DNA of 13,426 nt from a virus (taxonomy: Duplodnaviria; Heunggongvirae; Uroviricota; Caudoviricetes): IMG/VR virus record IMGVR_UViG_651053022_000002, positions 1 through 13,426 of that record, one strand, 5' to 3'. Each line of letters opens with the position of its first letter. Within the stretch, counting starts at the first letter, position 1. The position numbers and the translations under genes are program-made. The notes beneath the pieces were generated by a model. That model was not told the origin of the DNA, did not search any database, and saw only the letters and a program-made list of their open reading frames with translations. Positions 1-13,426 of this stretch are shown here, one piece after another.

Positions 1-177
1 TTACTGTTGGCGCAGGGTACGGATACCCTCCCTGGCCTGTGCGATACAGGGCAACAGTGCTGCCGAATCTGTTTTATCCTCATCGTTGTCGAAGATAATT
101 CCCGATTCGCAGTCGATATTGTCCTGCAGCCACGTAATCAGAATATCCAGCGCTGTTTCCGTGGTTAATGATTTCAT
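1..177 (-). CDS. Small conserved protein (58 aa) downstream of the cbtA module; possibly DUF957/YpjJ-like
   Basis: ATG at 177..175 and TAA at 3..1, internal to the 181-aa ORF 1..546. Protein MKSLTTETALDILITWLQDNIDCESGIIFDNDEDKTDSAALLPCIAQAREGIRTLRQQ. Position matches the small gene that follows cbtA in CP4-type islands (from memory). No strong Shine-Dalgarno. Confidence 0.45.
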   Translation of the reverse strand: MKSLTTETALDILITWLQDNIDCESGIIFDNDEDKTDSAALLPCIAQAREGIRTLRQQ

Positions 178-193
178 GTTGTGAATTTCCGGA

Positions 194-682
194 TTACCAG
201 TCGAAAGTGGGTAAACCCGGCAGATATCCGGCACTGGCATCCAGATGAATGAGACTGACACCATAACACCGGATGAGTGTGACGACCAGACGACGGAACG
301 TTTTTGACAGCCCCAGGCGCTTAAGCCGCAGAACCGGGTATGACCACGTATCGGTACGTAACAGATAACCGGTACCGGTAAAATGAATCCATTCTGATTC
401 ACCGAAGTCACTGGTCTGGTGTGACAGCGAGTACAGCCAGGCGTTGTCCGTTTCCGTGATATGTGCGGTACTGCAGCGTATGCCGGTAAGGGCAACAAAT
501 GGTGGCGTGCAGTCTGCTGAGGTCCGGTCAGATTCATCAACAACACGAAGGGAGTAGCCGTTATCGCAGACCATGTTAATCAGTTCAGCGAGATTAACAC
601 CATCAATGTCAACGACAATGCGCCCCATGTTCAGCGCCTGCACGTTAACGCTGTCGGCTTCCAGCGTCAGGGCCAGTTTCAT
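194..682 (-). CDS. Hypothetical protein (162 aa), DUF5983-like partner downstream of cbtA
   Basis: ORF 194..682. GGAGG sits 7 nt upstream of the ATG at 682..680, inside the 3' end of cbtA, so the two genes overlap by 38 nt. Family name is recalled from annotation habit, not verified. Confidence 0.5.
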
Positions 683-1055
683 CGTTTCGCCTCCGGATGC
701 TTCCCAGGGTAATGTTATTTACCGTTCTGTAATTGTCGCGGATCATCAGGCCTGTTGCCCGGCGAGCCCGGAGGATATCGATGCTGTTTATTAACTGAGA
801 GTGGGTACAGGCGCTGAATCCCGGCAGGTCGGTACGTACCAGTGCGTATTTTTCCACGAGAAAGTTCACTGCATCACACAGTGAAATGCCTGCCTCAATA
901 TGCTGCTCAATCACACGTTCATCAGCGAACGGTGTGTCATTCAGCGTGAGGCCATAGTGCTGGTCCAGCAGTCGGGTGAGCAGTGTCTGCCAGATGGTGA
1001 CTGGAGACGGGCAGCACGATACCTCCCGTACATGCGTGTCGGGTAATGTTTTCAT
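645..1055 (-). CDS. cbtA: CbtA-family toxin of a type IV toxin-antitoxin system (YeeV/YkfI/YpjF-like), 136 aa
   Basis: Translation [103 protein letters not shown]... matches my recollection of E. coli YeeV across most of its length; the C-terminal tail is longer than the recalled ~124-aa form. Confidence 0.85.
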
Positions 1056-1144
1056 ACTGAAGATTTTCCTGATATGCAGAGATAAAAAATGGGACAGTGG
1101 CGTGGTGAAAACACCAGGCCGGAGCAGAAGGTTATTCTGGTGGT

Positions 1145-1513
1145 TTACTTTTTCGTTTCAGGTGTCGGATAAACAGCCAGATAAACGTAACCACAGGAGC
1201 CGAGGGTGTCGGCTTCACAGGTCAGCCCCTTCGCATACAGTGTCACGGTATGCTGATGGCGGGGATTCAGTTCACCACTGGTGAGCATTAATTTCAGTTG
1301 TTTCATCAGCAGCGGAAAGGCCTGGTCCAGAGGGTACGCATCCGCATCTCTGAACCGGCCTCTGATACCGGCACGGTCGGCAAGGTAATGCAACCGGTTA
1401 CCCTCCTGCACCAGACGGGCGCCGAAACAGGGCGTCACTGTGCAGGGTAGTCCCCACCAGGGATGGTCGTCATTGTCATCGGGATGCGTTGTCCCGGAAA
1501 GTGTGTCTGACAC
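1145..1513 (-). CDS. cbeA: CbeA-family antitoxin (YeeU/YfjZ-like), copy A, about 123 aa with a GTG start
   Basis: Core ...[35 protein letters not shown]...[12 protein letters not shown]...[43 protein letters not shown] is YeeU-like. GTG at 1513..1511 is preceded by GAGGA. The ORF-track extension to 1621 runs into an unrelated remnant. Sits 89 nt upstream of cbtA. Confidence 0.75.
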
Positions 1514-1562
1514 GATAAAATCCTCACAGAAAATCGGTGAATGATAGTTTAACGATGACGGG

Positions 1563-1665
1563 TCAGCCGGCGCGCAGACCGGCTTCGGTAAAGGTGTATT
1601 CGTTGATGAGCAGGACCTCATCCACAGCGGCGTCTGAGCTCTGCCAGTCGTACTCGTTTTCCGGG
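1563..1665 (-). pseudogene. 3' fragment of the 171-aa gene (duplicate of the 2479..2580 segment), not an independent gene
   Basis: ORF 1563..1772 ends ...[32 protein letters not shown], near-identical to the C-terminus of the 2479..2994 protein. Nucleotide similarity runs about 1561..1660 and then breaks. Confidence 0.5.
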
Positions 1666-1917
1666 TGACGGAACATCCAGCAGTCGGGTGAGCAGTGTCT
1701 GCCAGATGGTGACGGGAGACGGGCAGCGCGATGCCGCCCGTACGTGTATGCCTGCCTCAATATGCTGCTCAATCACACGTTCATCGGCAAACGGTGTGTC
1801 ATTCAGTGTGAGGCCATAGTGCTGGTCCAGCAGTCGGGACAGCAGTATCTGCCAGATTTCAACAGGAGACGGGCGAGAACTGGCCGCCTGCCCGGGTAAT
1901 ACAGGTAATGTTTTCAT
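1618..1917 (-). pseudogene. Chimeric cbtA remnant: 5' end of cbtA (about 57 codons) joined to a second partial copy of the cbtA 5' segment
   Basis: Translation begins [57 protein letters not shown] (cbtA N-terminus) and then re-enters ...[17 protein letters not shown]. The segment 1681..1746 is a near-copy of 970..1033. Confidence 0.6.
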
Positions 1918-2012
1918 ACTGAAGATTTTCCTGATATGCAGATATAAAAATGGAAAAGTGGCGTGGTGAAAACACCAGGCCGTAGCAGAAGGCTATTCTG
2001 GAGAGTTAATTT

Positions 2013-2190
2013 TTCATTTCGGGCGTCGGATAAACAGCCAGATAAACGTAATCACAGGAGCCCAGGGTATCGGCTTCGCAGGTCAGTCCTTTCGCATACA
2101 GTTCATTTCGGGCGTCGGATAAACAGCCAGATAAACGTAACCACAACTGCTGAGGGTATCGGCTTTGCAGGTCAGCCCTTTTGCATACAG
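2013..2190. repeat. Tandem direct repeat, 2 x 89 bp, diverged copies of the cbeA 3' end
   Basis: Copy 1 at 2013..2101 and copy 2 at 2102..2190 both start ttcatttcgggcgtcggataaacagccagataaacgtaa and end gcatacag; a third related copy lies at about 1160..1250 in cbeA copy A. Confidence 0.8.
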
Positions 2191-2463
2191 CGTGACGGTA
2201 TGCTGATGGCGGGGATTCAGTTCACCGCTGGTGAGCATGAGTTCCAGTTGTTTCATCAGCAGCGGAAAGGCCTGGTCCAGGTGGTACGCATCTGCATCGC
2301 TGAACAGGCCTCTGATACCGGCGCGGTCGGCAAGGTAATGCAACCGGTTACCCTCCTGCACCAGACGTGCCCCGAAACAGGGCGTCACGGTGCAGGGCAG
2401 TCCCCACCAGAGGCGGTCGTTATGGTCGTCGGGATAATTTGTCTCATGGAGTTTGTCTGACAC
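2083..2463 (-). CDS. cbeA: CbeA-family antitoxin, copy B (126 aa), with a C-terminus altered by the tandem repeat
   Basis: [99 protein letters not shown]... is YeeU-like. The protein ends ...PTPEMNCMRKD, whereas the adjacent repeat copy encodes the canonical-looking ...PTPEMKN stop. Confidence 0.75.
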   Translation of the reverse strand: MSDKLHETNYPDDHNDRLWWGLPCTVTPCFGARLVQEGNRLHYLADRAGIRGLFSDADAYHLDQAFPLLMKQLELMLTSGELNPRHQHTVTLYAKGLTCKADTLSSCGYVYLAVYPTPEMNCMRKD

Positions 2464-2478
2464 GATAAAGTCCTCAGG

Positions 2479-2994
2479 TCAGCCGGCGCGCAGACCGGCT
2501 TCGGTGAAGGTGTATTCGTTGATGAGAAGGGCCTCATCCACAGCGGCATCAGAGGTCAGCCTGTCGTACTCGTTTTCCAGCTGACGGTACAAGTCGCGCA
2601 GGGCTTCGCTGACAGCGGCTTCCGCATCGGCTGTCATAGCCTGACCAGTCGGACTGTTCCGGGTAACAGTGATATCCATGCTGTACGGATGGCAGTAACG
2701 TCCCCGGTGGTGGATTTCAGCCTGCAGTTGCCAGAAGTTACGTTTCTGCACCGCCTGCAGGGCATCCGCGATACGATGGAGTTCATGGTCCTGTGTGGCA
2801 TACTCCCGGAGCCTTCTGGCTGTTGCTGGCTGCCAGTGCCAGCGTCCTTCAAAACAGGCTCCGTCCCCCTGGCTGCAGAATCCGCTGAACCAGATGCACG
2901 CCTCTTCCATAAACCTGCCGTTGCTGAGCCGGAAAACGCGCTGGCGGAGGTCAATTCCGAAAATGCCACAGACCGCCCTGAAGTCCTCATACAC
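2479..2994 (-). CDS. Conserved hypothetical protein immediately upstream of cbeA (171 aa from a GTG); possibly disrupted at its 5' end
   Basis: ORF 2479..2994 begins at GTG 2994..2992; reading upstream in frame hits TGA at 3051..3049. An ATG-initiated ORF in another frame (ATGATG at about 3084, through a T7/A7 run at 3054..3060) covers the upstream sequence. Family not recognised. Confidence 0.45.
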   Translation of the reverse strand: MYEDFRAVCGIFGIDLRQRVFRLSNGRFMEEACIWFSGFCSQGDGACFEGRWHWQPATARRLREYATQDHELHRIADALQAVQKRNFWQLQAEIHHRGRYCHPYSMDITVTRNSPTGQAMTADAEAAVSEALRDLYRQLENEYDRLTSDAAVDEALLINEYTFTEAGLRAG

Positions 2995-3093
2995 GTTTTC
3001 ATACCAGTTGCTGTCAGCATGATGCTGACGGTACCAGTCGCGGGCTTTTCACGATAAAAAAACTTCGGCAATTTCATCATGATTTGAAACATT

Positions 3094-3117
3094 GGCACCC
3101 TGTTAGCAAGGGTGCCA
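3094..3117 (-). terminator. GC-rich hairpin (8-bp stem) at the par-module / TA-island junction; possible terminator after parR
   Basis: ggcaccct-gttagca-agggtgcc at 3094..3117, downstream of parR on the minus strand; the following U-tract is weak. Confidence 0.3.
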
Positions 3118-3165
3118 GAATGATGTGTTGGTCTGTATTTTATTAGTTCACATACAATTATCAGA

Positions 3166-3480
3166 TTATTCTGGGAATAAGGTCTGAATATTCTTTTTTA
3201 TTTTATAAAAATTGCATTCAACTCCGCTAGGCTGATTATCCTGGTATGTTTCCTTGATGCTAACGGTATTGAAGGGGAGGTTGTCCTCTGGCCATTCGGC
3301 CATCCAGTAGGCAAATGCTGGGTTGCGCTTTATGAGCGCTAGCCCAGCCAGAAAGGCCGCGCGTTGCGCGCGGCTGCGTTCGGAGGCTGGCAGGCTATCG
3401 AGGTAATTGCACGCCTCCTGTTCACTCTTGACGGCGGCGGGCTTCAGATAGAAACTTATCCGTCTGGTTGGTGTCGTCAT
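3166..3480 (-). CDS. parR: ParR-like centromere-binding protein of a type II (ParMR) partition system, 104 aa
   Basis: ATG at 3480..3478 lies 4 nt after the parM stop. MTTPTRRISFYLKPAAVKSEQEACNYLDSLPASERSRAQRAAFLAGLALIKRNP... resembles plasmid R1 ParR as I recall it (RRTIAFKL...LDSIPQGERSRLNRAALTAGLALY). The ORF-track extension to 3615 overlaps parM and is rejected. Confidence 0.75.
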   Translation of the reverse strand: MTTPTRRISFYLKPAAVKSEQEACNYLDSLPASERSRAQRAAFLAGLALIKRNPAFAYWMAEWPEDNLPFNTVSIKETYQDNQPSGVECNFYKIKKNIQTLFPE

Positions 3481-3484
3481 TGGT

Positions 3485-4444
3485 TTACTCCTTGTCCATT
3501 GCGTACAGCCCATTAACCAGAGCAAACTGTGGCACCCCGTCCGCGATGAAAGTCGCATTAACTCCGCAGACTTCGCGGATAGCGGGTGCCACAATCTCCG
3601 CCCCTCCACCGACAACCATCACCCGCCCGTAACCCGAAAAAACCGCCAGCGCGCGGATCACGCGTTGTTTCAGTGTTTCTTCCTTTTCACGAATAACCGC
3701 CATCAGGCTGGCGTAATGCGCGTCATTGTGGATGTGCTGGCGCAGCCAGGCTTCATCATGGCGATGTTCGATAATGGTATTGGCGATGTGGTGACTGGTG
3801 CGCATACCGTTAGTGGCCATCACCGACAGTACGGCATCGGCCATCAGGGAAACGCCTACGTGTGGATCGCAAAACACCTGGCTGATACCTGCCAGTTGCC
3901 CTTGAACCTTTGCCACATCCAGCGTGGTTCCGCCTAAATCCACAATCAGCAGGGATTCAAACGGACTCATGTCAGCCAGTGCTTTAAAGCCAGCCGGAAT
4001 GGATTCAGGCATAACCCGCACGTTACGGATAGTGAATGCTTCGCCGTTCTGGTATTCCACCGGGCGCATAACGTTCGCTTTTTTGCGGTTGATGTTGGCC
4101 ATGTCCGGCTGTGCGTTTGTGTCGAAATACTCGCTCAGTGGCAGGGTGACAACCACATCCACCTCCTGTGGCGTGATGCCTGATTTGACCAGCGCGTGAT
4201 GAATGGCGATTACATTCACATCGCTGTACTGGTATTGCGTGTCGGTCGTCTGGACAAAGCGATCGCTAACCGGATCAAAACCATAGCGCACGCCATCAAG
4301 CATGTAGTTCGCGGGCTGCATGCCACCGAACGGCGCAGACCATTCCGACTTGAAGCTGTTCGGGCTGATGGCGTTGCGGCGTTCGCCATTCTCAGTCCAT
4401 GCCAGCTTGATGTTGGTGGAGCCGTCGTCGATACAAATTTTCAT
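3485..4444 (-). CDS. parM: ParM/StbA-like actin-type plasmid segregation ATPase, 319 aa
   Basis: MKICIDDGSTNIKLAWTENG...ISPNSFKSEW...YSDVNVIAIHHAL...VVVTLPLSEY...LIVDLGGTTLDV... carries the actin-fold phosphate motifs (IDDGSTNIK, DLGGTTLD) and closely tracks my recollection of R1 ParM. AAGGAAAA Shine-Dalgarno precedes the ATG at 4444. Confidence 0.9.
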   Translation of the reverse strand: MKICIDDGSTNIKLAWTENGERRNAISPNSFKSEWSAPFGGMQPANYMLDGVRYGFDPVSDRFVQTTDTQYQYSDVNVIAIHHALVKSGITPQEVDVVVTLPLSEYFDTNAQPDMANINRKKANVMRPVEYQNGEAFTIRNVRVMPESIPAGFKALADMSPFESLLIVDLGGTTLDVAKVQGQLAGISQVFCDPHVGVSLMADAVLSVMATNGMRTSHHIANTIIEHRHDEAWLRQHIHNDAHYASLMAVIREKEETLKQRVIRALAVFSGYGRVMVVGGGAEIVAPAIREVCGVNATFIADGVPQFALVNGLYAMDKE

Positions 4445-4462
4445 GTCGCTTTTCCTTATGTT

Positions 4463-4590
4463 GATTAATTAATCGTTTACGGGATTCTGAAATCCCGTTT
4501 TTGCCTGTTTTGTGCGCGCTTCATATATCGCTGCGCGTTTTTTGCTCATTTACGGGATTCGTAAGTCCCGTTTCTGTCTGTTTTTTGTTT
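4463..4590. repeat. Centromere- or operator-like repeats: the AT palindrome gattaattaatc plus two copies (73-bp period) of a hairpin-containing unit
   Basis: gattaattaatc at 4463..4474. Unit A: acgggatt-ctga-aatcccgt at 4479..4498 followed by T-rich sequence. Unit B: acgggatt-cgta-agtcccgt at 4552..4571, same flanks (tttacgggattc...cccgttt...ctgtttt). Unit A is in the rep-parM intergenic region; unit B is inside the rep 3' coding end. Confidence 0.7.
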
Positions 4591-7343
4591 CCACTGGTCA
4601 GGCCACCCCGCAGCAGGTCTGCTTTGCGGCTGGCGCGTTCAGTGGTTTCACTGATTCTCTGTGCGTGCTCTGCGTCGCGGATGGCGCGCAGCATGTCAGA
4701 AAGCACGGTAACGGGTGTTTTCATGGTGTTCTGGCCCTGCTGAAGTGTGGATGCCAGGCGTGCGGCGGCTTCAGGGTCTGATGCCCCCAGCTGTGCCAGA
4801 TAGCTGGCGACCGGGTTATGGCGGATCTCCGTGCTGCTTACGCCATGATTACGGCTCAGGCGCTGCCAGAGCTGCGTGATTCGGCTGTCCGGGCGGGTAT
4901 CCGGTTTGCGTACAATTTCAAATCCCTGCGGTGCAATGATGCTGCCGTCAACGTACAGACTGCCGCCCCGTAACAGGTGCTGCATCTGTTGTTCACCGAT
5001 ATGCAGGCCGAGAGATTCAGCAGACTCCCGCCATTCTTTAGCGAGTAATTCGTGGTTATCAGGCAAAGGCCGCTGCTGTTTGCGGCTCTGTGTCCAGCTC
5101 TGCATTTCATCGCTGCTGTTTTTTGCCTGTTTGTCACGAAGCGAACGCATCAGCGCCCGGCGTTCGTGTCGTTTCAGTGAGCGCATCCATTCGTTCACTT
5201 CAACGCCGTCAGGGAGCTGCGGCCACGGTGCTGGCCGTTCTTCCGGCTGTTCTGTCCCGTTGTTGTCCGTTTCCTGTACACGGGGACAGTTATTGCCACG
5301 AGTCCAAGGGGCGGCAGGGCCGCCCTGAAGGTCAAAACCATTTTCGCGGGCGCTGTCTTCCGCTTCCGGTTTACGTCTTACCAGCTTCCAGTTATCCGGA
5401 TGCGTGCACACACGGGAGGATTCCCCGATGAGTGGTGACCAGATCCCGTAAATCTGTACGCTCTGTTCGCCGTAATCGTTCAGCTCATCTGCGAGGTCGT
5501 AGGCGGTGCGAATCAGGTAGTCCTTGCGTGGAACAAGCACGCCACCCTGTTTTTCAATGTAGGTGGCAAAACACCCGGCATCGGCGGCAGCGAGTACCGC
5601 ATCCATTGCATCATCTTTCAGCCGTTGCGGGCCTTCCGGATTGCGTGCCATCTGGCTGGCAAGGCGGCGCAGTTCACGCCACACCTGACGGGAGGGGATG
5701 CCAAAGAACTGGAACTGACGGACCCGGTGAAGGCGCGCCCAGCCGATGGCGCGCTCCACGCTCTCGGCCATTGATTTTCCGGTTTCGTGGTCCACGCGTG
5801 GCTTGCCCGTTTTCGGGTCGATGCCATCCACGGCGCGGCTGTCCAGGTTCTTTCCGATGTAGGTGGCGATGTAGCTGGTTGGCGTGCCTTTTGAGCCGTC
5901 GACATACTCCACCTTAAAGCGCGGAGTAATATCATTGCCCAGCTCGTGGCGGTCTTCCTGAATGGCAATATCGCGGGTATGGGACACAATGGTGTCGATT
6001 TCTTCCGGATGTGCAAAGACCATCATATGCCAGTGCACGGTGCCGTCATGATGAGGCTCCACCGTGCGGATGCCATACCAGCGCAGGCCGTCGCGGTTCA
6101 GTTTTTTGCGGACCGCCGCAAAAAACGTGTTAACCAGGTAATCGCTGGAGTCGCGCATTGTGGCCCCGTTCCATTTGGGATTCGGATGACCGTTCTCCGT
6201 TGTGGCGTGGTATTTTGACGGGCAGGTGACAGTCAGAAACACCGCTTTGTCGCCACGGGCTTCGGCCAGAAGTTCCAGTCCCTTCATGGTGGCCATCATT
6301 TCTGCCTTACGGTGAACCGGGTTACTTACTCCCGCGTAATACACTGTCTCGAGATCAATCGTGAACCCGTCTTCATTTTCCAGCATGAAACTTTTCAGGA
6401 AATCGCGTGTTTTCTCGCGCTGTGCGCGAAACTCGCTTAACGCGTCCTGGCTCAGATAGGGTGATGTTTTTCTGGAAACCAGACAGGCGGCGCGGAGTTG
6501 TTCTTCTCTCCACTCGCAACGTAACAGCCACAGTTTGCGTTTCCACCATTCCGCACAGGTCAGGCGAAGGATTGCGCCCGGCAGCAGCTCCGTGTCCGGT
6601 TCGTTCCTCCGGTCTTTGTCTGTTGTCAGTGCGTCATAATGTGGAGGCATGGCGTGCAGGTGTAACGCCATGCGGGCCAGCATCTGATACGCCTTCAGGG
6701 TTACATCCATGGTCAGCTCGCCATCGGTCGCGCCAAAGCCATCGCAGAGTTTTTCGAAGGTGCTGCTGAACATCGCCGCCGTCATGGTGGCCAGCGTCTG
6801 TATCTGGTGTTTGTTGAGCTGCGGCAGGTAAAGCAAATCGTCCAGGCGTTCGCGTCCGGCAAGGGAGCGATAACCCGGTGTCAGCCAGCGTCCGTCAGTG
6901 CTATCCAGACGTTCGAATATTTTGCGCAGGGTTCCGCGTGCATAGCGTTCCGCCTGCCAGCTCTTTTTGCCTTTCCGGCGATCGGCTTCCTGTTTTTTGC
7001 GCAGGAAGGAGAGGTGGCGAATAAGCGGATCGCGCAGATAGGACGGCAGCAGGCGCAGCGAGGCCATGGCTTCATCCACCGCGCCACGTGCCTGTTTTCT
7101 GGCGTCTCCTGCCAGTGTGATGGTTTTGTCCTGTTTTTCCTGTGCGTCCAGGCTTTTATTAATCAGGTTGCCCAGCGGCGTGGCTGAGAACGCCGCATCA
7201 GCCATTTCCTGGCGGCGCTCGTTCTCTGCCCGGTAGGCATCCAGCCAGGAGGAAAGCGCGGATTCAGGAGCGGGGATCCCCGTTCCTTCACGCCCCACTG
7301 CGTGGCGCGGTTGTTGCCAGTCCCTGAGGTACTCTGCCGTCAT
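4521..7343 (-). CDS. Rolling-circle replication initiator (HUH endonuclease, phage P2 gpA / phiX174 gpA superfamily), 940 aa
   Basis: Contains the HUH metal-binding motif (TVHWHMMVF) and, about 50 residues later, the paired-tyrosine motif SYIATYIGKNLD (YxxxY) typical of superfamily-I rolling-circle Reps. No Walker A motif was seen, so it is not a P4 alpha-type primase-helicase. Confidence 0.85.
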   Translation of the reverse strand: MTAEYLRDWQQPRHAVGREGTGIPAPESALSSWLDAYRAENERRQEMADAAFSATPLGNLINKSLDAQEKQDKTITLAGDARKQARGAVDEAMASLRLLPSYLRDPLIRHLSFLRKKQEADRRKGKKSWQAERYARGTLRKIFERLDSTDGRWLTPGYRSLAGRERLDDLLYLPQLNKHQIQTLATMTAAMFSSTFEKLCDGFGATDGELTMDVTLKAYQMLARMALHLHAMPPHYDALTTDKDRRNEPDTELLPGAILRLTCAEWWKRKLWLLRCEWREEQLRAACLVSRKTSPYLSQDALSEFRAQREKTRDFLKSFMLENEDGFTIDLETVYYAGVSNPVHRKAEMMATMKGLELLAEARGDKAVFLTVTCPSKYHATTENGHPNPKWNGATMRDSSDYLVNTFFAAVRKKLNRDGLRWYGIRTVEPHHDGTVHWHMMVFAHPEEIDTIVSHTRDIAIQEDRHELGNDITPRFKVEYVDGSKGTPTSYIATYIGKNLDSRAVDGIDPKTGKPRVDHETGKSMAESVERAIGWARLHRVRQFQFFGIPSRQVWRELRRLASQMARNPEGPQRLKDDAMDAVLAAADAGCFATYIEKQGGVLVPRKDYLIRTAYDLADELNDYGEQSVQIYGIWSPLIGESSRVCTHPDNWKLVRRKPEAEDSARENGFDLQGGPAAPWTRGNNCPRVQETDNNGTEQPEERPAPWPQLPDGVEVNEWMRSLKRHERRALMRSLRDKQAKNSSDEMQSWTQSRKQQRPLPDNHELLAKEWRESAESLGLHIGEQQMQHLLRGGSLYVDGSIIAPQGFEIVRKPDTRPDSRITQLWQRLSRNHGVSSTEIRHNPVASYLAQLGASDPEAAARLASTLQQGQNTMKTPVTVLSDMLRAIRDAEHAQRISETTERASRKADLLRGGLTSGNKKQTETGLTNPVNEQKTRSDI

Positions 7344-7349
7344 AGTGAT

Positions 7350-7715
7350 TTACTTCGTCATGCCATTCAGGGTGTCGCGGCAGACTGTAGCCAGCCGCTG
7401 AATTTCCAGCACGGTGTCTTCTGTGTCGGCATGGCGATGTGTGATGCGGATGCTGTCGGCAATCACATCGACGATTGCAGAGGATGGGCGCTGGTAAATG
7501 CCAATAACGGACGGGGTGCCACCTTCAATGCGGTAAAGCCTGTAATTTCCCTCGTGGCTGTCAATCATGTAGCGACCATCAATAACAATCTTTCCGTCAG
7601 CGAGCTGCGGTACAGGCAGGGATTTCAGGTACATGTCATAACGATCACGCACGCGAGCGGCAAGATCACGTTCTGTATTGAGCAGGTATTCAAGAAAGTC
7701 GTTGGCGAGAATCAT
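7350..7715 (-). CDS. Hypothetical protein (121 aa) immediately upstream of rep
   Basis: ORF 7350..7715 with AAGAGGA 7 nt before the ATG; its stop lies 6 nt before the rep start, suggesting co-transcription. Confidence 0.6.
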   Translation of the reverse strand: MILANDFLEYLLNTERDLAARVRDRYDMYLKSLPVPQLADGKIVIDGRYMIDSHEGNYRLYRIEGGTPSVIGIYQRPSSAIVDVIADSIRITHRHADTEDTVLEIQRLATVCRDTLNGMTK

Positions 7716-7787
7716 TGCGGCAATCCTCTTGTTACAGATGTGCGAAGGCCTCCCGCCGCAAGGTGCAGGAAAGGCCCGGAACAGGAA

Positions 7788-8018
7788 TTAATGGAGTTTG
7801 TTTTGCTGCTGGATGAGCTGTTGAAGCTCGTGCAGATCATCCGCCAGATAGCTGAAAACAGAGGCGGAATAAATGTTTGATAGTGCGTGGCTGCGCTCAT
7901 GCAGCATATTGATGTGCATGATTTGCGCGACGCGTGATGCGCGGGAAAGTCTGCGGTTGATTTCAGTCTGGATGTGACGACGCTCCGCGATAGCGCGGTG
8001 CTGTTTGCGGTTTGCCAT
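7788..8018 (-). CDS. Small basic protein (76 aa), possible DNA-binding regulator
   Basis: ORF 7788..8018, MANRKQHRAIAERRHIQTEINRRLSRASRVAQ..., Arg/Lys-rich N-terminus; AAGGGG Shine-Dalgarno upstream. Confidence 0.5.
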   Translation of the reverse strand: MANRKQHRAIAERRHIQTEINRRLSRASRVAQIMHINMLHERSHALSNIYSASVFSYLADDLHELQQLIQQQNKLH

Positions 8019-8196
8019 GGTGTGGCCCCTTGTGTAGTAAGTTGTGAAAACTCACCATCCAGAGCTGCGAAACTGTGGGTGGCGAGACGTACGAGGTTCG
8101 CAGTACCGGCTACACAAGAACCCGGCCCGACCGAAGTCGGCCCCGTACGCCCCGCCATAATTCTGACGCGAAAAAAACGTGGCAATACAGTACGCA

Positions 8197-8218
8197 CAAA
8201 AAAACCGCTGGCGCGGTT
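8197..8218 (-). terminator. Candidate intrinsic terminator on the minus strand inside the early operon
   Basis: Minus strand reads aaccgc-gcca-gcggtt followed by TTTTTTT (plus coordinates 8203..8218 stem-loop, 8197..8202 T-tract), about 120 nt after the 8341..8640 gene. Confidence 0.5.
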
Positions 8219-8340
8219 GTGCGCTTGTGTAGTCAGCAGGCTGCGAAACCCGGCACCCGTTTTATGAGGTGCAGCGGAAATGTAACCTGACTGATTGCGG
8301 CATGGCAAGCGGTTTTTTTGTGTGTGCATGCTCTGGTTTC

Positions 8341-8640
8341 TTACTGGTTCAGAAAAAAATCAAAAACCTTGTCAATACGTTGCAGCAGCTCTTGCTGTAT
8401 TGCTTCCGGCGTTTCCGGTTCGCCTGGCACCTCCAATGTCGCGCAGAAATCAGCGATTTCATGATGGAGCGTCAGGCGAATGGCAGGAGCCGTGGTTCTG
8501 GCGTGCTCCAGCTCATCCAGCAATGCCAGCGCAGCAGACGGCGAGAGCATTGCGCGAAATGCCAGTAATTTTTGAGGTGTTGCCATTCGTTGCAGGGCAA
8601 ATGCCAGTTCGCGTAGCTTCTGGTGGTTGATGGTGCTCAT
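8341..8640 (-). CDS. Hypothetical protein (99 aa)
   Basis: ORF 8341..8640 with GAAGGAAG Shine-Dalgarno; its start overlaps the upstream gene's stop by 4 nt. Confidence 0.6.
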   Translation of the reverse strand: MSTINHQKLRELAFALQRMATPQKLLAFRAMLSPSAALALLDELEHARTTAPAIRLTLHHEIADFCATLEVPGEPETPEAIQQELLQRIDKVFDFFLNQ

Positions 8641-8903
8641 GTTCTGGCTTCCTTCAGTAGCTGGTTAAACATGTGAGTAAGTGGATTGCTACACCCGAAC
8701 GGCATCGGGTTTACGTGGTAAGAAGCCTGGCCTCCAGTTTTGCGAGCGCGACCACCTGTGCTGCGGTTTGTTCTGATGACTAAGCCGCCGCGCCAAAGTT
8801 GGCGTAACTCAGCATTAATGGCTGTGGTTGGAGTATTCAGTGCTGCGGCGATCTCTCCGCCGCTACACCCCGGATGAGTAGCGATGTAGTCCAGAATGGT
8901 CAT
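8637..8903 (-). CDS. Hypothetical protein (88 aa), possible winged-helix DNA-binding protein
   Basis: ORF 8637..8903, AGGAG 6 nt before the ATG; MTILDYIATHPGCSGGEIAAALNTPTTAINAELRQLWRGGLVIR is an HTH-like segment; 4-nt overlap with the neighbouring gene. Confidence 0.6.
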   Translation of the reverse strand: MTILDYIATHPGCSGGEIAAALNTPTTAINAELRQLWRGGLVIRTNRSTGGRARKTGGQASYHVNPMPFGCSNPLTHMFNQLLKEART

Positions 8904-9103
8904 CTGCGTGGCTCCTGTACCTGTCGGATAAGGTTTACCCGCGCCACATTAGTGGCGCAGAAGTAAGTGCCGTCAGTGAGGTAGATGTGGTGTGCATCCT
9001 TTTCCGAACGATGTTTGTCGATAGTGGTAATCAGGCGTTCGTCGACCTCGTATTCGCGCCCTCTGGAGGTAAAGCGAACGACGGGAAAATGCTTAATTGC
9101 CAT
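8900..9103 (-). CDS. Hypothetical protein (67 aa)
   Basis: ORF 8900..9103 with AAGGGGG Shine-Dalgarno. Confidence 0.55.
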   Translation of the reverse strand: MAIKHFPVVRFTSRGREYEVDERLITTIDKHRSEKDAHHIYLTDGTYFCATNVARVNLIRQVQEPRR

Positions 9104-9126
9104 TGCGCCCCCTTTGTCCAGTAACT

Positions 9127-9537
9127 CTATGCGTTAAATACGGTGCACTGTGCGTCATCAATGAATGCGACTTGAGAGCGCTCTATCAGGCGGAGATTTG
9201 TCAGAATTTCTGATTCCCTTATGGGGTGAGGAGTGATCAGGTATTTATCCTGTAACCCGGCGATAATGGTGTATCGCTGTAGCTCCGAGCCAATTGTGTA
9301 AATAAGGCGTCCGGTGTTAGACAAATCCAGTCCGGTGACTGGTTGTGTTCTGAGAACCGCCAGTTCAGCATCCTGTTTTGCGATAATTTCGGCTGCTTCT
9401 GCCGTGACTCTTGCGACTATCAGTGTGTGGGTTGCGACGTCCATATGATTATTTGCTATGGCTTTTTTCGCTACTTCGTTTTCTGTCTTTGAAATTTCTT
9501 TCAGTGCTCTGATGATACCTTCTTCTTTTGCGTGCAT
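9127..9537 (-). CDS. Hypothetical protein (136 aa)
   Basis: ORF 9127..9537 with GGAGA 7 nt before the ATG; lower G+C than the rep region. Confidence 0.6.
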   Translation of the reverse strand: MHAKEEGIIRALKEISKTENEVAKKAIANNHMDVATHTLIVARVTAEAAEIIAKQDAELAVLRTQPVTGLDLSNTGRLIYTIGSELQRYTIIAGLQDKYLITPHPIRESEILTNLRLIERSQVAFIDDAQCTVFNA

Positions 9538-9630
9538 TTTTGTATCTCCGTTATTTGCGTGTGCGAATACCTCCGTTAATACGGATGGTTTTCACGTTTT
9601 CTTATTTAATTTGATGTTTTATTTGTATCG

Positions 9631-9744
9631 TTATTCACCAGTGAAAAAACGTTCAATCTTTTTTACTGAATGAATAATTCGCACAATGCCAATTGCGCAG
9701 ACCACTGAAATAATCAGAACAATCCATGACATAAATATACTCAT
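9631..9744 (-). CDS. Unlisted small hydrophobic peptide (37 aa), probably a single transmembrane helix
   Basis: My own translation: MSIFMSWIVLIISVVCAIGIVRIIHSVKKIERFFTGE. The ATG at 9744..9742 overlaps the upstream stop at 9743..9741 (ATGA coupling); GGGGA lies 7 nt upstream. Too short for the supplied ORF track. Confidence 0.4.
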   Translation of the reverse strand: MSIFMSWIVLIISVVCAIGIVRIIHSVKKIERFFTGE

Positions 9745-9983
9745 GCGATATTCCCCAGCTTATACGGTTCAATATGTTCCCCGCATTCTGCGGCACAGAT
9801 CAGCTCGGAAAGTTCGTTAAGTGCATCCAGATCATCAGCGTAAAAAGCCACGTCATACAGACTCCGGATTGCCCTGGTCAATGAGTCACGGGCTGCACGT
9901 TCAGCATGAGCGCCTGATGCACTTAAGCGAAAATAAAAACGCTCAAGTGCTTTGTTAATGAGAGTTTTATATTCTTTGCCCAT
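9741..9983 (-). CDS. Hypothetical protein (80 aa from the internal ATG)
   Basis: ORF 9741..10034 trimmed to the ATG at 9983..9981 (MGKEYKTLINKALERFYFRL...), which avoids overlap with the upstream gene. Confidence 0.5.
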   Translation of the reverse strand: MGKEYKTLINKALERFYFRLSASGAHAERAARDSLTRAIRSLYDVAFYADDLDALNELSELICAAECGEHIEPYKLGNIA

Positions 9984-9994
9984 CGCAACGCCCT

Positions 9995-10273
9995 TTAATC
10001 TGCTTTCTGAATTTCTGCTTCTGAATCCATACAAATAATTTCGATATAGGGTTCATCGCCATTAGTCTTACGTGCTTTTTCCGCTTCGCTAATGATTTCG
10101 TGTACAGTCTGGTACGGAAGTTCTACGGTCAGGCGCGTGCCGTTCAGATAAACGTAAGTAGCTGCATTTTTTTCGGATGGAACAACTCCGTCAATGGCTG
10201 ATGCGCGTAATAACAGTTCACCGCGAAAATCAATAAAACGGATAAATACACCTTGTGCATGCTCTTTGGTCAT
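9995..10273 (-). CDS. Hypothetical protein (92 aa from the internal ATG)
   Basis: ORF 9995..10333 trimmed to the ATG at 10273..10271 (MTKEHAQGVFIRFIDF...), with AGGTG upstream and a 10-nt gap to the preceding gene. Confidence 0.5.
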   Translation of the reverse strand: MTKEHAQGVFIRFIDFRGELLLRASAIDGVVPSEKNAATYVYLNGTRLTVELPYQTVHEIISEAEKARKTNGDEPYIEIICMDSEAEIQKAD

Positions 10274-10283
10274 AAAGCACCTG

Positions 10284-10634
10284 TTATAAATCAGCCTGTT
10301 TAATAAAACTTTGCCCGTGAAGCAGACGATCAACCGTGCGAAGTGCTTCGTATAATGTGAAATCCTGCCCGAACTGATTGTCGCCGTTGCTCAGTGCAAA
10401 AATGCGGTTTCCGGTAAATGGGTTGCGCTGGCATCTGTGAACCACGATTCCTGCTTTTTCAATCAGCCAAGTGTGTTCACCAATTTGTTTTACTGGGTAG
10501 CCATCCGGCGTTGCGTGTGTTTCGCTCAGGCTGTAGCGAGAGTTGCTACGTGATGCACTGGTAGCGAAACGGTTAGCATGGCGTTCCGCACCGTTGCGGA
10601 AGCGCTGCTGTGAAGAATTGCGCTGTAGTTTCAT
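10284..10634 (-). CDS. Hypothetical protein (116 aa), first gene of the leftward early operon
   Basis: ORF 10284..10634; the ATG at 10634 sits just downstream of a palindrome-containing promoter region. Confidence 0.55.
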   Translation of the reverse strand: MKLQRNSSQQRFRNGAERHANRFATSASRSNSRYSLSETHATPDGYPVKQIGEHTWLIEKAGIVVHRCQRNPFTGNRIFALSNGDNQFGQDFTLYEALRTVDRLLHGQSFIKQADL

Positions 10635-10645
10635 ATTAAAACTCT

Positions 10646-10737
10646 GTACCTTCGGTAAGGTGTACTCGTGTCACCTTGTATTGATTTGTGGTATTTTTTT
10701 TGTGTGTCTAGGACTTGGACTGGCCGGTTCAGGTCCT
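10646..10737. promoter_or_regulatory. Divergent regulatory region with two inverted repeats
   Basis: accttCGGTaaggt at 10648..10661 (5-bp arms); imperfect inverted repeat aggacttggac / gttcaggtcct at 10710..10737 (9 of 11 positions complementary, 6-bp spacer). Lies between the minus-strand early operon and the plus-strand 63-aa ORF. Confidence 0.35.
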
Positions 10738-10771
10738 GGCTTATGTTTAATTAAATTGTTAAGAGGTTTTC

Positions 10772-10963
10772 ATGTCAGAAGATAAAAAAGTTGTTAATTT
10801 GTTGAGTGAACTTAGTGCTGCTCTGGATAACATTAACCCTCCCAGGGTAAAAACGACGGGTGATAAAGACGCATTAAACACAGAGATTCATATATTACTG
10901 GCGTTAGTAACTGACAAAATTCAGCGTAAATACCCACCTGTCACACAACTGGTTGATTTTTAA
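10772..10963 (+). CDS. Small hypothetical protein (63 aa), AT-rich, the only plus-strand gene in the interior
   Basis: ORF 10772..10963, MSEDKKVVNLLSELSAALDNINPPRVKTTGDKDALNTEIHILLALVTDKIQRKYPPVTQLVDF, with AAGAGG 6 nt before the ATG; convergent with the 141-aa gene. Confidence 0.5.
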   Translation: MSEDKKVVNLLSELSAALDNINPPRVKTTGDKDALNTEIHILLALVTDKIQRKYPPVTQLVDF

Positions 10964-10969
10964 TTTGAT

Positions 10970-11392
10970 TTATGCCGGGCTGCTCCCGGCATCTTCTACC
11001 TGCCATAATGTCTCGTCACCTGATAGAGCAAAACGAAATGAGTGAAGTATATCCCCCCGAGAGAAGCTCACGGCTACAGCTGCGGGAAAGTCAAATATAA
11101 TCCCACCTTCATTTTTAAAACGATTACGCAATTGATAGGCTATCGGTTTGATTTGTGCAGGAAGAGTATCTATATCTCTTCCATTGACAACAGAATCTTT
11201 GTTTTCAAGTACTGATTTAGCGATTAGATATAGATGCCAGTAACTGGTTACAATTGTTACTCCTGTGATGTGTCGTAAATTAATTGCAATTCGTCCGTTA
11301 TTATGTTTTTCCGCAAGGTATTTCAGGTTATCAATTAATGCTTGGTCATTTTTTGAAATAGTTATTGTGAAATCTGACGTGTTTGTTTTCAT
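10970..11392 (-). CDS. Hypothetical protein (141 aa) in an AT-rich segment; candidate cargo (moron) gene
   Basis: ORF 10970..11635 trimmed to the ATG at 11392..11390, 4 nt after the upstream stop. Protein MKTNTSDFTITISKNDQALIDNLKYLAEKHNNGRIAINLRHITGVTIVTSYWHLYLIAKSVLENKDSVVNGRDIDTLPAQIKPIAYQLRNRFKNEGGIIFDFPAAVAVSFSRGDILHSFRFALSGDETLWQVEDAGSSPA. I counted 23/60 G+C in line 11101..11160 versus 41/60 in rep line 5701..5760. Confidence 0.6.
   Translation of the reverse strand: MKTNTSDFTITISKNDQALIDNLKYLAEKHNNGRIAINLRHITGVTIVTSYWHLYLIAKSVLENKDSVVNGRDIDTLPAQIKPIAYQLRNRFKNEGGIIFDFPAAVAVSFSRGDILHSFRFALSGDETLWQVEDAGSSPA
10972..10992 (+). terminator. Hairpin (8-bp stem) just after the 63-aa ORF; possible terminator overlapping the 3' end of the convergent 141-aa gene
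   Basis: atgccggg-ctgct-cccggcat at 10972..10992, 9 nt after the TAA at 10961..10963; the following tract (cttct) is only weakly U-rich. Confidence 0.3.
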
Positions 11393-11396
11393 ACGA

Positions 11397-11918
11397 TTAG
11401 TTGCCTCTGTTGTTTCTGAGTTGGTCCAGTTTTGAGCTTCTGCCTGTATAAACTCGCTTACCGTTAATGGTCTGGCAGTCTTCTTTATTAGCTGGAGAGA
11501 ACTTCCTTTTCTGGCGGTCATACGTCCAGTAACTTTTCCAGTTGTGCCATTCTGGGGGCTCGTGCTCTGGTAGCTCATCAGCCAACTTGTCCCACTCTTT
11601 GGCGTTAAACCACCATACTCCGTCTGAGTTTTCATCTTCCGGGTTTGTGCGCGTCTTGTGTCCCGGCATTTGACCGCGATGAATGGCTACGCGCAGTGCA
11701 GATTTTGTTAGCCCAATATATGCCGCGCCTTTTTCCAGAGAGCAAAGCCCGGCGATCGGACCATCCAGCCGCAAAGTCGCTCCTTTTTTGTAGGAACGCT
11801 TTTTCTTGTTTTCTTCGTGCTCGTCGTCGTTGGCGGCATCAATGGATCCGCTGAGTGCGTCACTTTCCTGAAGTGGTTGGTGGTCAGATAACTCTTTATC
11901 GGCAATGAAGTCCCGCAT
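11397..11918 (-). CDS. Excisionase/Cox-like HTH protein (173 aa) with an acidic N-terminus, divergent from the repressor
   Basis: ORF 11397..11918 with AAGAGGA before the ATG. The segment GAAYIGLTKSALRVAIHRGQMPGHK...GVWWFNAKEWDKL looks like an Xis/AlpA/MerR-type HTH with wing; its position mirrors cox/apl in P2/186-type switches. Confidence 0.6.
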   Translation of the reverse strand: MRDFIADKELSDHQPLQESDALSGSIDAANDDEHEENKKKRSYKKGATLRLDGPIAGLCSLEKGAAYIGLTKSALRVAIHRGQMPGHKTRTNPEDENSDGVWWFNAKEWDKLADELPEHEPPEWHNWKSYWTYDRQKRKFSPANKEDCQTINGKRVYTGRSSKLDQLRNNRGN

Positions 11919-11977
11919 TTGTTATCCTCTTGCGTTGGTGCGCTTGTCGCGCCTTGTGATGGTTTGTTTTGGCTTGT

Positions 11978-12001
11978 AAAGATAACCAAAAGGTTATCTT
12001 T
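11978..12001. promoter_or_regulatory. Perfect palindromic operator (10-bp arms, 4-bp spacer) in the divergent promoter region
   Basis: aaagataacc-aaaa-ggttatcttt at 11978..12001; a further half-site ggttatctt at 12025..12033 overlaps the regulator start codon. Confidence 0.6.
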
Positions 12002-12022
12002 GTGCGAGAGGTTAATACTCAA

Positions 12023-12364
12023 ATGGTTATCTTGTCAATAGACTACGCAAAAAAGTTACGTCAGATACGTAAGGCGGAAGGGTTAACACAAAAGCAGTTT
12101 GCGGATATTACTGGGTTGTCTTTGGCAACCATAAGGAATTACGAATCGGGGCAAAAGAACGCTAGAGCAAAAATCGTTGAGGCGGTTCTGCAAGTCGATC
12201 GCTTTGAAAAATACATGCTGTGGCTAATAAAAGATAAGACGCTACCTGTCGCCGGGCAGATTGCTCCGGCTCTCTCTCTTGATGGATCTATTCAGTCGGA
12301 GGGCGATCAGGTTTCAATCGGTATTACCCAAAAATCACCCCGATCAGGCCGCAATGTTGGCTGA
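12023..12364 (+). CDS. XRE-family helix-turn-helix transcriptional regulator (immunity repressor-like), 113 aa
   Basis: The segment LRQIRKAEGLTQKQFADITGLSLATIRNYESGQK is a canonical XRE/Cro-C1 HTH. First in-frame ATG at 12023 (the ORF track begins at a TTG at 11969). Same orientation as int, divergent from the Cox-like gene. Confidence 0.75.
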   Translation: MVILSIDYAKKLRQIRKAEGLTQKQFADITGLSLATIRNYESGQKNARAKIVEAVLQVDRFEKYMLWLIKDKTLPVAGQIAPALSLDGSIQSEGDQVSIGITQKSPRSGRNVG

Positions 12365-12433
12365 CTCTACACATTGAGCGAATTACATATCGCAAGGAGT
12401 GTTTAGTTAATTTATCCGTTGGAGGGGCTAATC

Positions 12434-13426
12434 ATGTCGATTAAGCAACTCAAAGACGGACGTTATCAGGTCGATGTCAGACCGCAGGGGGCGGAAGGAA
12501 AGCGGATTCGAAAAATCTTTGCCCTGAAATCAAAGGCTCAGGAGTTTGAGAAGTATGTGTTACAGAACTTTCATGACAAGCCATGGCAGGCTAAGCCAGC
12601 TGATCAGCGGCGATTATCAGAGCTGCTTGATGCGTGGTGGATGCTTGATGGGCGTAATCAGGCTTACGGGGATAGCTACAGGGTTAGGCTAGGGAAGGTT
12701 GTTCGTGAAATGGGAGATCCTCGCGCCAGTCAGATGACGCGAAAATTTATGCTTGAATATCGGTCAGAGAAATTACAGGCCGGATTAATGCCGTCCAGTA
12801 TTAATCGTGACTTATGCGTACTGTCTACCATGTTCACGGTGCTGATTGAAGCTGAGGTCTTTCACAACGCGAACCCTGTACGCGGTATACGAAAACTGAA
12901 AGTTCAGAACACAGAGATGGCCTTTCTTTCTGATGATGAGATTGAACGGCTTCTTGAGCGACTGGAGGGTGATGTGCGTCGTGTTGCCATTCTGTGTCTT
13001 TCTACTGGTGCCCGATGGAGTGAAGCATCGGAACTACGTGGAGAGCATATCGTTGGCAACCGGGTGACGTTCTTTAACACCAAAAACGGAAAATCCCGTT
13101 CGGTTCCTGTGGCGGATTCGGTCGTGCCTCTGATTAAAACCCGTCGAACGGGGTTATTGTATCAGGTTGATTATCTGAAGTTCCGGGAGATTCTTCAGGA
13201 GGTGAAACCGGATTTGCCGAAGGGGCAGGCTACGCATGTCATGCGTCATACATTTGCCACACACTTTATGATGAATGGCGGAAATATTGTTACGTTGCAA
13301 CGAATCCTGGGGCACGCAACGATTCAGCAAACAATGACGTACGCTCATTTTTCGCCGGACTTTTTACTGGACGCGATCAACTTTAATCCGCTGGCTGAAA
13401 GTGTCCATAAACTGTCCATCGATTAG
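12434..13426 (+). CDS. int: Tyrosine site-specific integrase, 330 aa
   Basis: GGAGGGG lies 7 nt before the ATG at 12434. N-terminal arm-binding-like region (MSIKQLKDGRYQVDVRPQGAEGKRIRKIF...), catalytic signatures (ARWSEASELR; HVMRHTFATHF; LGHATIQQTMTYAHF). The stop codon is the last three bases of the window. Confidence 0.9.
   Translation: MSIKQLKDGRYQVDVRPQGAEGKRIRKIFALKSKAQEFEKYVLQNFHDKPWQAKPADQRRLSELLDAWWMLDGRNQAYGDSYRVRLGKVVREMGDPRASQMTRKFMLEYRSEKLQAGLMPSSINRDLCVLSTMFTVLIEAEVFHNANPVRGIRKLKVQNTEMAFLSDDEIERLLERLEGDVRRVAILCLSTGARWSEASELRGEHIVGNRVTFFNTKNGKSRSVPVADSVVPLIKTRRTGLLYQVDYLKFREILQEVKPDLPKGQATHVMRHTFATHFMMNGGNIVTLQRILGHATIQQTMTYAHFSPDFLLDAINFNPLAESVHKLSID

Follow-up and report, generated by a model that had tools for sequence, protein, structure and literature searches.

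Positions 1 to 13,426 of the IMG/VR virus record IMGVR_UViG_651053022_000002 (Caudoviricetes), a stretch of 13,426 nucleotides to which we refer throughout as the window, carry a replication gene of the phage P2 gpA type (gene A) followed directly by the two genes of a plasmid-type partition system, parM and parR. The same DNA encodes a tyrosine integrase, a C-type immunity repressor and the regulator Cox, and the present analysis concerns the identity of this element and the role that the partition genes may play in it. The features central to this question are listed below.

4521-7343, (-) strand: gene A, a P2 gpA-type HUH rolling-circle replication endonuclease of 940 amino acids (PF05840, PHROG 91, motifs)
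4473-4587, no strand assigned: candidate parC centromere, a 42-nt direct repeat present twice, at 4473-4514 and 4546-4587 (repeat and pattern search)
3485-4444, (-) strand: parM, an actin-like segregation ATPase of 319 amino acids (Pfam StbA_N and ParM C-terminal domain; structure 1mwk)
3166-3480, (-) strand: parR, the centromere-binding adaptor of a type II partition system, 104 amino acids (PF10784, PHROG 2515)

From position 3050 to its last base, the window is 100% identical to chromosomes of Escherichia coli ST131, among them those of EC958 and JJ1886, and the phage records ON470599, ON470623 and PV468777 match it at 100% identity across the same interval. Phage P88 (95.1%), Citrobacter phage phiSM (94.4%) and Xuanwuvirus P884B11 (95.3%) align at these identities over 65-69% of the 10.4-kb segment; the Xuanwuvirus comparison is confined to the early arm, and the genus was read from the taxonomy lines of the phage records. 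By sequence comparison, the segment 3050-13426 represents the early arm, for lysogeny and replication, of a temperate P88-like myophage in the genus Xuanwuvirus, Peduoviridae (P2 family). Its layout is of the P2 type, with C and int running in one direction and the early operon, from cox to A, running in the other, and the Xuanwuvirus early region is lengthened by a type II partition cassette made up of the candidate parC, parM and parR. Two members of this group, P88, an inducible prophage (PMC5285337), and phiSM, which lysogenises K-12 (PMC6456863), have been described as active temperate phages.

In EC958, the matching segment forms the right arm of a prophage of ~38 kb that lies between serS and dmsA. 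The order in this prophage is hok and ogr, the tail genes, an invertible tail-fibre segment, the baseplate genes, the lysis genes and L, M, N, O, P and Q, continuing with three cargo genes, then parR, parM and A, the early open reading frames (ORFs), and cox, C and int, with dmsA coming after the integrase gene. The virion set includes portal, terminase, scaffold, capsid, lysis, baseplate, tail and ogr genes, and the portal gene stands 2.7 kb past parR. We took the boundaries of coding sequences from the EC958 annotation, the window coordinate being the EC958 locus coordinate minus 15951. Because the identical ST131 segment runs into a full virion set, the integrase, the lysogeny switch, the Rep protein and ParMR are parts of one complete P2-family phage.

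Residues 179-503 of the gene A protein cover the whole of the Pfam Phage_GPA profile (PF05840, positions 1-321 of 321, E 4.9e-131), PHROG 91, 'nicking at origin of replication', matches at E 9.5e-275, and the HUH motif HWHMMV (residue 437) and the paired tyrosines YIATY (YxxxY, residue 491) are both present. The 3' part of the gene holds short repeats; the nick site, or origin, was not located. Homologues of gpA also occur on phage-sized plasmids of 30-37 kb in Arsenophonus, Pantoea, Enterobacter and Salmonella. Endonucleases of the gpA type, with 31-43% identity, are further encoded by 9.1-kb plasmids of Klebsiella pneumoniae, by 33-36 kb plasmids of Arsenophonus nasoniae and by conjugative plasmids of ~200 kb. 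As gpA-type genes sit on such plasmids, the P2-type initiator serves true plasmids too.

The partition genes were assigned in the same way. Both Pfam domains of ParM are hit (E 2.7e-82 and 1.1e-68), and the structure of ParM from plasmid R1 (1mwk) aligns with residues 2-316 at E 1.1e-92, with the nucleotide-binding motifs (DDGSTNIK, DLGGTTLD and GGGAE) kept. ParR matches Pfam Plasmid_stab_B (PF10784) at E 1.9e-28 and PHROG 2515, 'partition protein', at E 1e-54, and gives a weak match (E 0.012) to structure 2jd3, deposited as StbB. The parR gene begins 4 nt past the parM stop codon, and a hairpin follows it at 3093-3117. The EC958 annotation supports the coding sequence 3166-3480 on the (-) strand, with the product plasmid partitioning/stability family protein; a longer ORF of 149 amino acids that reaches 3615 was rejected as parR, since it overlaps parM and the EC958 coding sequence is 3166-3480.

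The two copies of the 42-nt repeat upstream of parM lie 73 bp apart, start to start, and contain 25-nt palindromes at 4476-4500 and 4549-4573. The pattern of the palindrome, AAACGGGAyTnnnGAATCCCGTAAA, has two matches in the window against an expectation of 0.00, one within the 76-bp spacer between A and parM and the other within the final 20 codons of gene A. Both palindromes recur with a few substitutions in P88, phiSM, 520873 and pZ1323PEC0009-2, and they score as terminators on the non-coding strand only. The end of gene A at 4546-4587 (...TGLTNPVNEQ...) is at once protein-coding and a probable cis element, and it resembles a duplicate of the intergenic copy.

An initial annotation of this DNA, made from the letters alone, had named the P2 gpA-type HUH initiator, the ParM/ParR pair behind it, repeats upstream of the pair, a tyrosine integrase and a phage-type repressor/Cox switch. 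All of these calls withstood database searches: the initiator through the full PF05840 profile and its two motifs, the partition pair through Pfam, PHROG and 1mwk, the repeats as the palindrome-bearing direct repeat at 4473-4587, and the integrase, repressor and Cox through Pfam. The annotation had also taken these genes for a single element instead of two adjacent unrelated islands, and here too the comparison bears it out, in that the order gpA-parM-parR is the same in P88, 520873, phiSM, ON470599 and pZ1323PEC0009-2, that is, in every P88-like phage record annotated.

Five P88-like copies of the cassette were compared. The ORFs are intact, the spacer between A and parM is nearly invariant and both palindromes are present in all five; the ratio of nonsynonymous to synonymous substitution rates (dN/dS) is 0.02-0.08 for parM and 0.21-0.37 for parR. 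ParM is 98.7-99.1% identical between the window and P88/phiSM. The substitution pattern indicates that parM-parR is under purifying selection. In the phage collection searched, homologues of ParM are found solely in 14 P88-like records (95-100% identity) and in the P1-like phage D6 (47.8%). Among 72,556 plasmids, six records carry a ParM of at least 95% identity, and in all six a P88-type replication endonuclease adjoins parM; one of the six is a complete phage genome, and the next best plasmid ParM is 52.9% identical. Because the nearest plasmid ParMs are at most 53% identical, parMR is an old, lineage-specific core module of P88-like phages and not a recent capture from a plasmid. A recent plasmid insertion beside the prophage was likewise rejected, the cassette being syntenic across the genus.

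The same data bear on the notion that parMR is a decaying, functionless relic of recombination between a plasmid and a phage. Such a relic could be imagined in a prophage that is almost always chromosomal, where partition seems unnecessary. It would hardly be expected to keep intact ORFs in five of five copies, a nearly invariant spacer and so low a dN/dS in parM, nor to be found, as the module is, in 1304 of 5426 complete E. coli genomes (~24%), and we regard decay as a very improbable account of the cassette. In approximately four fifths of the sampled E. coli matches, the distal part of parR (the first 260 nt of the query) is missing wholly or in part.

ParR exists as two alleles in which 56 of 104 residues are identical. 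Common to both are the first 18 residues, which we take to be the DNA-contacting strand, and the C-terminal LFPE, presumably the ParM-binding tail. The window has the ST131/O157-type allele, distinct from that of P88, next to a ParM that is ~99% identical, and ParR is in this sense mosaic. Downstream of parR, the slot before the portal gene differs from one relative to the next: EC958 has a DUF4760 gene and two hypothetical genes (locus 16406-19033), P88 four different small ORFs (locus 90-1180) and phiSM a membrane protein (locus 635-1153). This slot is a variable cargo region that corresponds to tin/old of P2.

Allelic variation of ParR beside a nearly invariant ParM is what would be expected if partition specificity diversifies, and the cassette borders the cargo region between A and the portal, whose genes vary among relatives. 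Both observations could fit a function in trans, in which ParMR made by the prophage would serve for competition or exclusion, upsetting how related phages or plasmids that enter the cell are segregated. The two alleles have in common, however, both palindromes and the N-terminal part of ParR that is predicted to contact DNA, and for this reason centromere specificity does not appear to diversify. Plasmid ParMs are moreover too distant (at most 53% identity) for cross-reaction with R1-type systems to be likely, and nothing observed here speaks directly for exclusion, which leaves it, in our estimate, an improbable role for ParMR.

We turn now to a role in cis. The explanation that accounts best for the whole, and that we consider quite probable, is that the segment is a P88-like early arm in which parMR would stabilise the extrachromosomal circular form of the phage genome, with the prophage as the main long-term form of carriage. 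Its steps would be the following: (I) Cox and C would form the lysogeny switch, (II) gpA, with its HUH and YxxxY motifs, would nick the origin and start P2-type rolling-circle replication, which in this family is known to yield monomeric circles, (III) ParR may bind the two palindromes beside parM, and (IV) filaments of ParM-ATP, captured by ParR-parC complexes, may push sister circles apart. The cassette would in this manner confer plasmid-like segregational stability on a circular phage genome that would be present between infection and integration, once the prophage has excised, or where the host offers no free attB, and long-term carriage would be overwhelmingly as an integrated prophage.

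A circular form of a relative is on record. The PLSDB entry NZ_CP148288.1 (pZ1323PEC0009-2), deposited as a circular 'plasmid' of 34,461 bp from a cat isolate of E. coli, contains the complete genome of a P88-like phage. Its joint near int is split in a 34.5-kb integrated prophage of another strain, with one half at either end, which is how a precise attP product would be expected to look. The integrase of NZ_CP148288.1 differs in type from that of the window, with which it shares 178 of 331 residues, and a hok/gef gene and a Com-regulated DNA methyltransferase gene adjoin its presumed attP. This one circular record hints at an episomal form.

Several observations weigh against stabilisation of a circular genome by parMR, and we gather them here. 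Scans found neither a consensus sigma-70 promoter nor a (-)-strand terminator between A and parM; parMR may for this reason be expressed only with the early, lytic operon, of which they may simply be the last genes. The candidate centromere holds only two palindromes, and known parC sites hold many more repeats than two. Gene A should be silent under repression by C and would not, in that state, sustain a plasmid. The location of the module also speaks for integration, since chromosomes account for 1442 of the 1444 places at which the 5426 complete E. coli genomes carry it, and plasmids for just 2, and no record in these genomes contains the contiguous attP junction of NZ_CP148288.1 at 80% coverage or more. 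Finally, as to membership of a complete phage, the copy in the window may be truncated or its contig chimeric, the virion arm being replaced by unrelated sequence at 3049/3050.

How parMR and A are controlled may depend in part on the remainder of the early region, for which the features are as follows.

7350-7715, (-) strand: conserved early-operon ORF of 121 amino acids (PHROG 3237, E 3e-55; no Pfam match)
7788-8018, (-) strand: derepression-family protein of 76 amino acids, likely an anti-repressor (Pfam PF25738, E 6.3e-8; P88 homologue named 'derepression protein')
8075-8162, (-) strand: C4-type antisense RNA (Rfam RF01695, 83.2 bits, gathering score 45)
8198-8272, (-) strand: isrK-like RNA element that ends in a hairpin and U7 (Rfam RF01394, 65.2 bits, gathering score 50)
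8341-11392, (-) strand: block of early-operon ORFs as a whole (Pfam and PHROG matches, EC958 boundaries), containing the next six entries
8341-8640, (-) strand: early ORF with a weak Ead/Ea22-like match below the Pfam cutoff
8637-8903, (-) strand: MarR-type winged helix-turn-helix protein
8900-9103, 9127-9537, 9995-10273 and 10970-11392, (-) strand: early ORFs
9741-9983, (-) strand: DUF4754 protein
10284-10634, (-) strand: DUF4761 protein
10772-10963, (+) strand: small opposite-strand ORF inside the early block
11397-11918, (-) strand: cox, Cox-family excisionase and early-promoter regulator, first gene of the early operon (Pfam Phage_Cox)
12023-12364, (+) strand: C-type immunity repressor (HTH_3, E 3.8e-11), divergent from cox; 'immunity repressor protein GpC' in ON470599
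12434-13426, (+) strand: tyrosine integrase (Pfam Int_N, E 1e-27; Phage_integrase, E 1.5e-18)

The assignment of Cox relies on Pfam Phage_Cox (E 1.9e-7, 31.2 bits against a cutoff of 27.5) and on the RefSeq name 'Cox family DNA-binding protein'. Between the early ORFs and gene A, the two RNA elements and the derepression gene appear to form a control cassette of their own (7788-8272). The C4 RNA contains TTCTTGTGTAG ((-) strand, 8110-8120), which is complementary to CTACACAAG at two sites. The upstream site, 8222-8232, lies inside the isrK-like element; the downstream site, 8027-8037, sits 9 nt before the ATG at 8018 and runs on into AAGGGG, a likely ribosome-binding site. The same arrangement is found in c4 of P1 with icd-ant and in the CI RNA of P4. 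Placed upstream of A, the cassette may gate the expression of A and parMR independently of C and Cox.

This possibility matters for a stronger form of the episomal idea, according to which P88-like phages are facultative phage-plasmids whose gpA replicon, together with ParMRC, would let the genome under repression persist over many generations as a stable plasmid of low copy number where it does not integrate, comparable to P4, which can be either integrated or a plasmid. The circular 34.5-kb record would be an instance of such a plasmid, gpA homologues are carried by phage-sized plasmids and by the 9-kb plasmids of Klebsiella, and A and parMR are downstream of a separate, RNA-based control cassette. 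There is also a precedent in the P2-like Burkholderia phage KS14, for which plasmid preparation showed lysogeny as a plasmid (PMC3091744). Set against these points are the chromosomal location of all but two of the module-carrying places, the missing attP junction and the position of gene A within the C-repressed early operon, and the sole circular record could be an excised, replicating lytic intermediate. We consider a stable plasmid alternative to integration unlikely on balance. We would give similarly low credence to the related view that a partitioned episome persists where integration is not available, or until it takes place, with A and parMR gated by the C4/isrK RNA and the anti-repressor and not by C and Cox alone. 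If true, that view would make the P88-like phages the first characterised case in which a P2-type rolling-circle initiator is paired with actin-like partition in an integrating phage.

The initial annotation had envisaged both integrated and episomal states for the element, a reasonable idea that had already been suggested in a census of phage-plasmids. In this census (Pfeifer et al. 2021), P88 figures among the putative phage-plasmids, with "episomal and integrative states", and the census places it, as it does KS14, in the 'VP882 community' of phage-plasmids (PMC7969092). Phage genes and plasmid-type replication and partition genes are found together in one element, a combination that belongs to the definition of phage-plasmids used there.

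The phage segment ends abruptly on both sides. The last base of the window is the end of the integrase stop codon, and the att site consequently lies outside it. On the other side, phage homology begins bluntly at 3050, 33 bp before the stop of a cargo gene that measures 843 bp in EC958. The sequence to the left is of other origin.

1-3049, no strand assigned: non-phage left flank, two abutting fragments of CP4-type island ends, 1-1677 and 1678-3049 (identity to islands)

Its gene content comprises cbtA/cbeA toxin-antitoxin paralogues, a DUF5983 gene and a short gene annotated DUF957. The first fragment, 1-1677, is 99.9% identical to the block at the distal end of a CP4-type island (cbeA, cbtA, the DUF5983 gene and the DUF957 gene). 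The second, 1678-3049, is another, paralogous cbtA/cbeA block that is 83-95% identical to the references and begins within cbtA. Both junctions, 1677/1678 and 3049/3050, are blunt, the latter showing no microhomology. Coverage of the window stays below 80% in every complete E. coli genome and none of them spans 3049/3050; nor does the 40-mer across 3049/3050 occur in the GTDB species representatives, IMG/VR or the JGI metagenomes. Be the junction a genuine truncation or a misjoin, the left 3 kb does not belong to the phage element.

Several smaller features of the flank may be recorded. A truncated cbtA ORF of hybrid make-up (1618-1917) spans the join at 1677/1678, and 89 bp are duplicated in tandem at 2013-2101 and 2102-2190 (90% identical). 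Position 1 coincides with an annotated gene end in the matching island and 1677 is one base outside the next gene, as if the fragment had been cut at gene boundaries. Look-ups of the exact products of the hybrid cbtA ORF and of a 171-amino-acid ORF (2479-2994) returned no match, and those of the CbtA of 136 amino acids and the CbeA of 158 amino acids returned ordinary CP4-type islands only, with no adjoining phage. We rejected the idea that a simple deletion had fused the prophage to an island nearby, since in the EC958 gene order it would remove essential genes such as ftsK, lolA and serS; this argument assumes, from the K-12 map, that a tRNA-borne island would sit upstream at serW.

The absence of structural genes, on which the initial annotation had remarked, holds literally for the window, which contains no virion genes because it stops at the integrase stop codon and breaks bluntly at 3049/3050; it does not hold for the element, whose identical ST131 segment continues into a full P2-type virion set. 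Examination of the flanks, which had been proposed as a check, had a similarly divided outcome, with capsid and tail genes beside the EC958 copy but no tRNA or tmRNA gene in the window, the EC958 site being serS-dmsA.

The proposal built on this absence, namely that the element is an integrative plasmid or phage satellite without structural genes and represents a family not yet described, loses its footing accordingly. It could call upon a window of 13.4 kb devoid of virion genes and upon a virion arm that is missing to the left of 3050. Yet the identical 10.4 kb is contiguous with the full P2-type virion module in every complete genome examined, the left 3 kb consists of two bluntly joined fragments of unrelated islands whose junction is in no collection, and no sid, psu, delta-like or satellite primase-helicase gene was recognised by Pfam or PHROG in the annotated early arm. 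We find a satellite or integrative plasmid scarcely credible.

P88, phiSM and the EC958 prophage share with the window the order int, C, cox ... A, parM, parR and exhibit no substantive difference within the phage segment, while the copy in the window is severed from the virion arm at 3049/3050. The early region of P2 (int, C, cox, B, A, tin/old) has in common with it the divergent operons, gpA and the accessory genes between A and the portal; no homologue of P2 B was recognised in the window. After A, P2 carries orf91/tin/old where the window carries parMR, and the window has in addition the C4/isrK RNA and derepression cassette upstream of A. P2 A has 761 amino acids, compared with 940 for gpA of the window.

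The parMRC locus of plasmid R1 resembles the cassette in its order centromere-parM-parR, in the Pfam family of ParR and in the full-length alignment of ParM, of which approximately half of the residues differ. R1 parC consists of ten 11-bp iterons, whereas the candidate site in the window consists of two 25-nt palindromes 73 bp apart. The replicons differ as well, R1 being a theta-replicating plasmid and the host replicon of the cassette in the window an integrating rolling-circle phage.

The two possible lifestyles have parallels in other temperate elements. KS14 likewise combines a P2-type virion with plasmid partition genes (in the lineage of the window, the virion genes lie outside the window), but it relies on ParA, a RepB initiator and a serine recombinase where the present element has ParMR, gpA and a tyrosine integrase and is found integrated. 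The satellite P4, like this element, bears an integrase and has two possible lifestyles. Its replication gene is preceded by an RNA immunity factor and by the derepression protein epsilon, an arrangement similar to the order C4 RNA, derepression protein, ORF, A in the window. In contrast, P4 uses the alpha primase-helicase, has neither parMR nor virion genes and depends on P2, whereas the element described here belongs to a complete, helper-type phage. Beyond the P88-like records, D6 alone among the phages of the collection has a ParM homologue (StbA-type). It is without the P2 architecture and is a 91-kb P1-like phage, of a type known as an obligate plasmid prophage.

In sum, the element is an already known and very common prophage of E. 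coli, and its finding here is a re-discovery. The initial annotation had recognised no described family for it, a judgement overtaken by its place in Xuanwuvirus (Peduoviridae), by the inclusion of P88 in the phage-plasmid census and by the names that its genes already bear, PGAP labelling them 'plasmid segregation protein ParM' and 'plasmid partitioning/stability family protein' and PHROGs holding families for both. A search of the literature found no functional study of ParM or parMR in P2-like phages or Peduoviridae. Here, an integrating phage of the P2 family keeps an actin-type cassette on which purifying selection is strong. Were this cassette to stabilise genomes that are not integrated or have been excised, integrative prophages and phage-plasmids would be less sharply divided in a phage lineage carried by major pathogens (ST131, O157), and such a stabilising role, if true, would bear on how these prophages are retained, lost and transferred.

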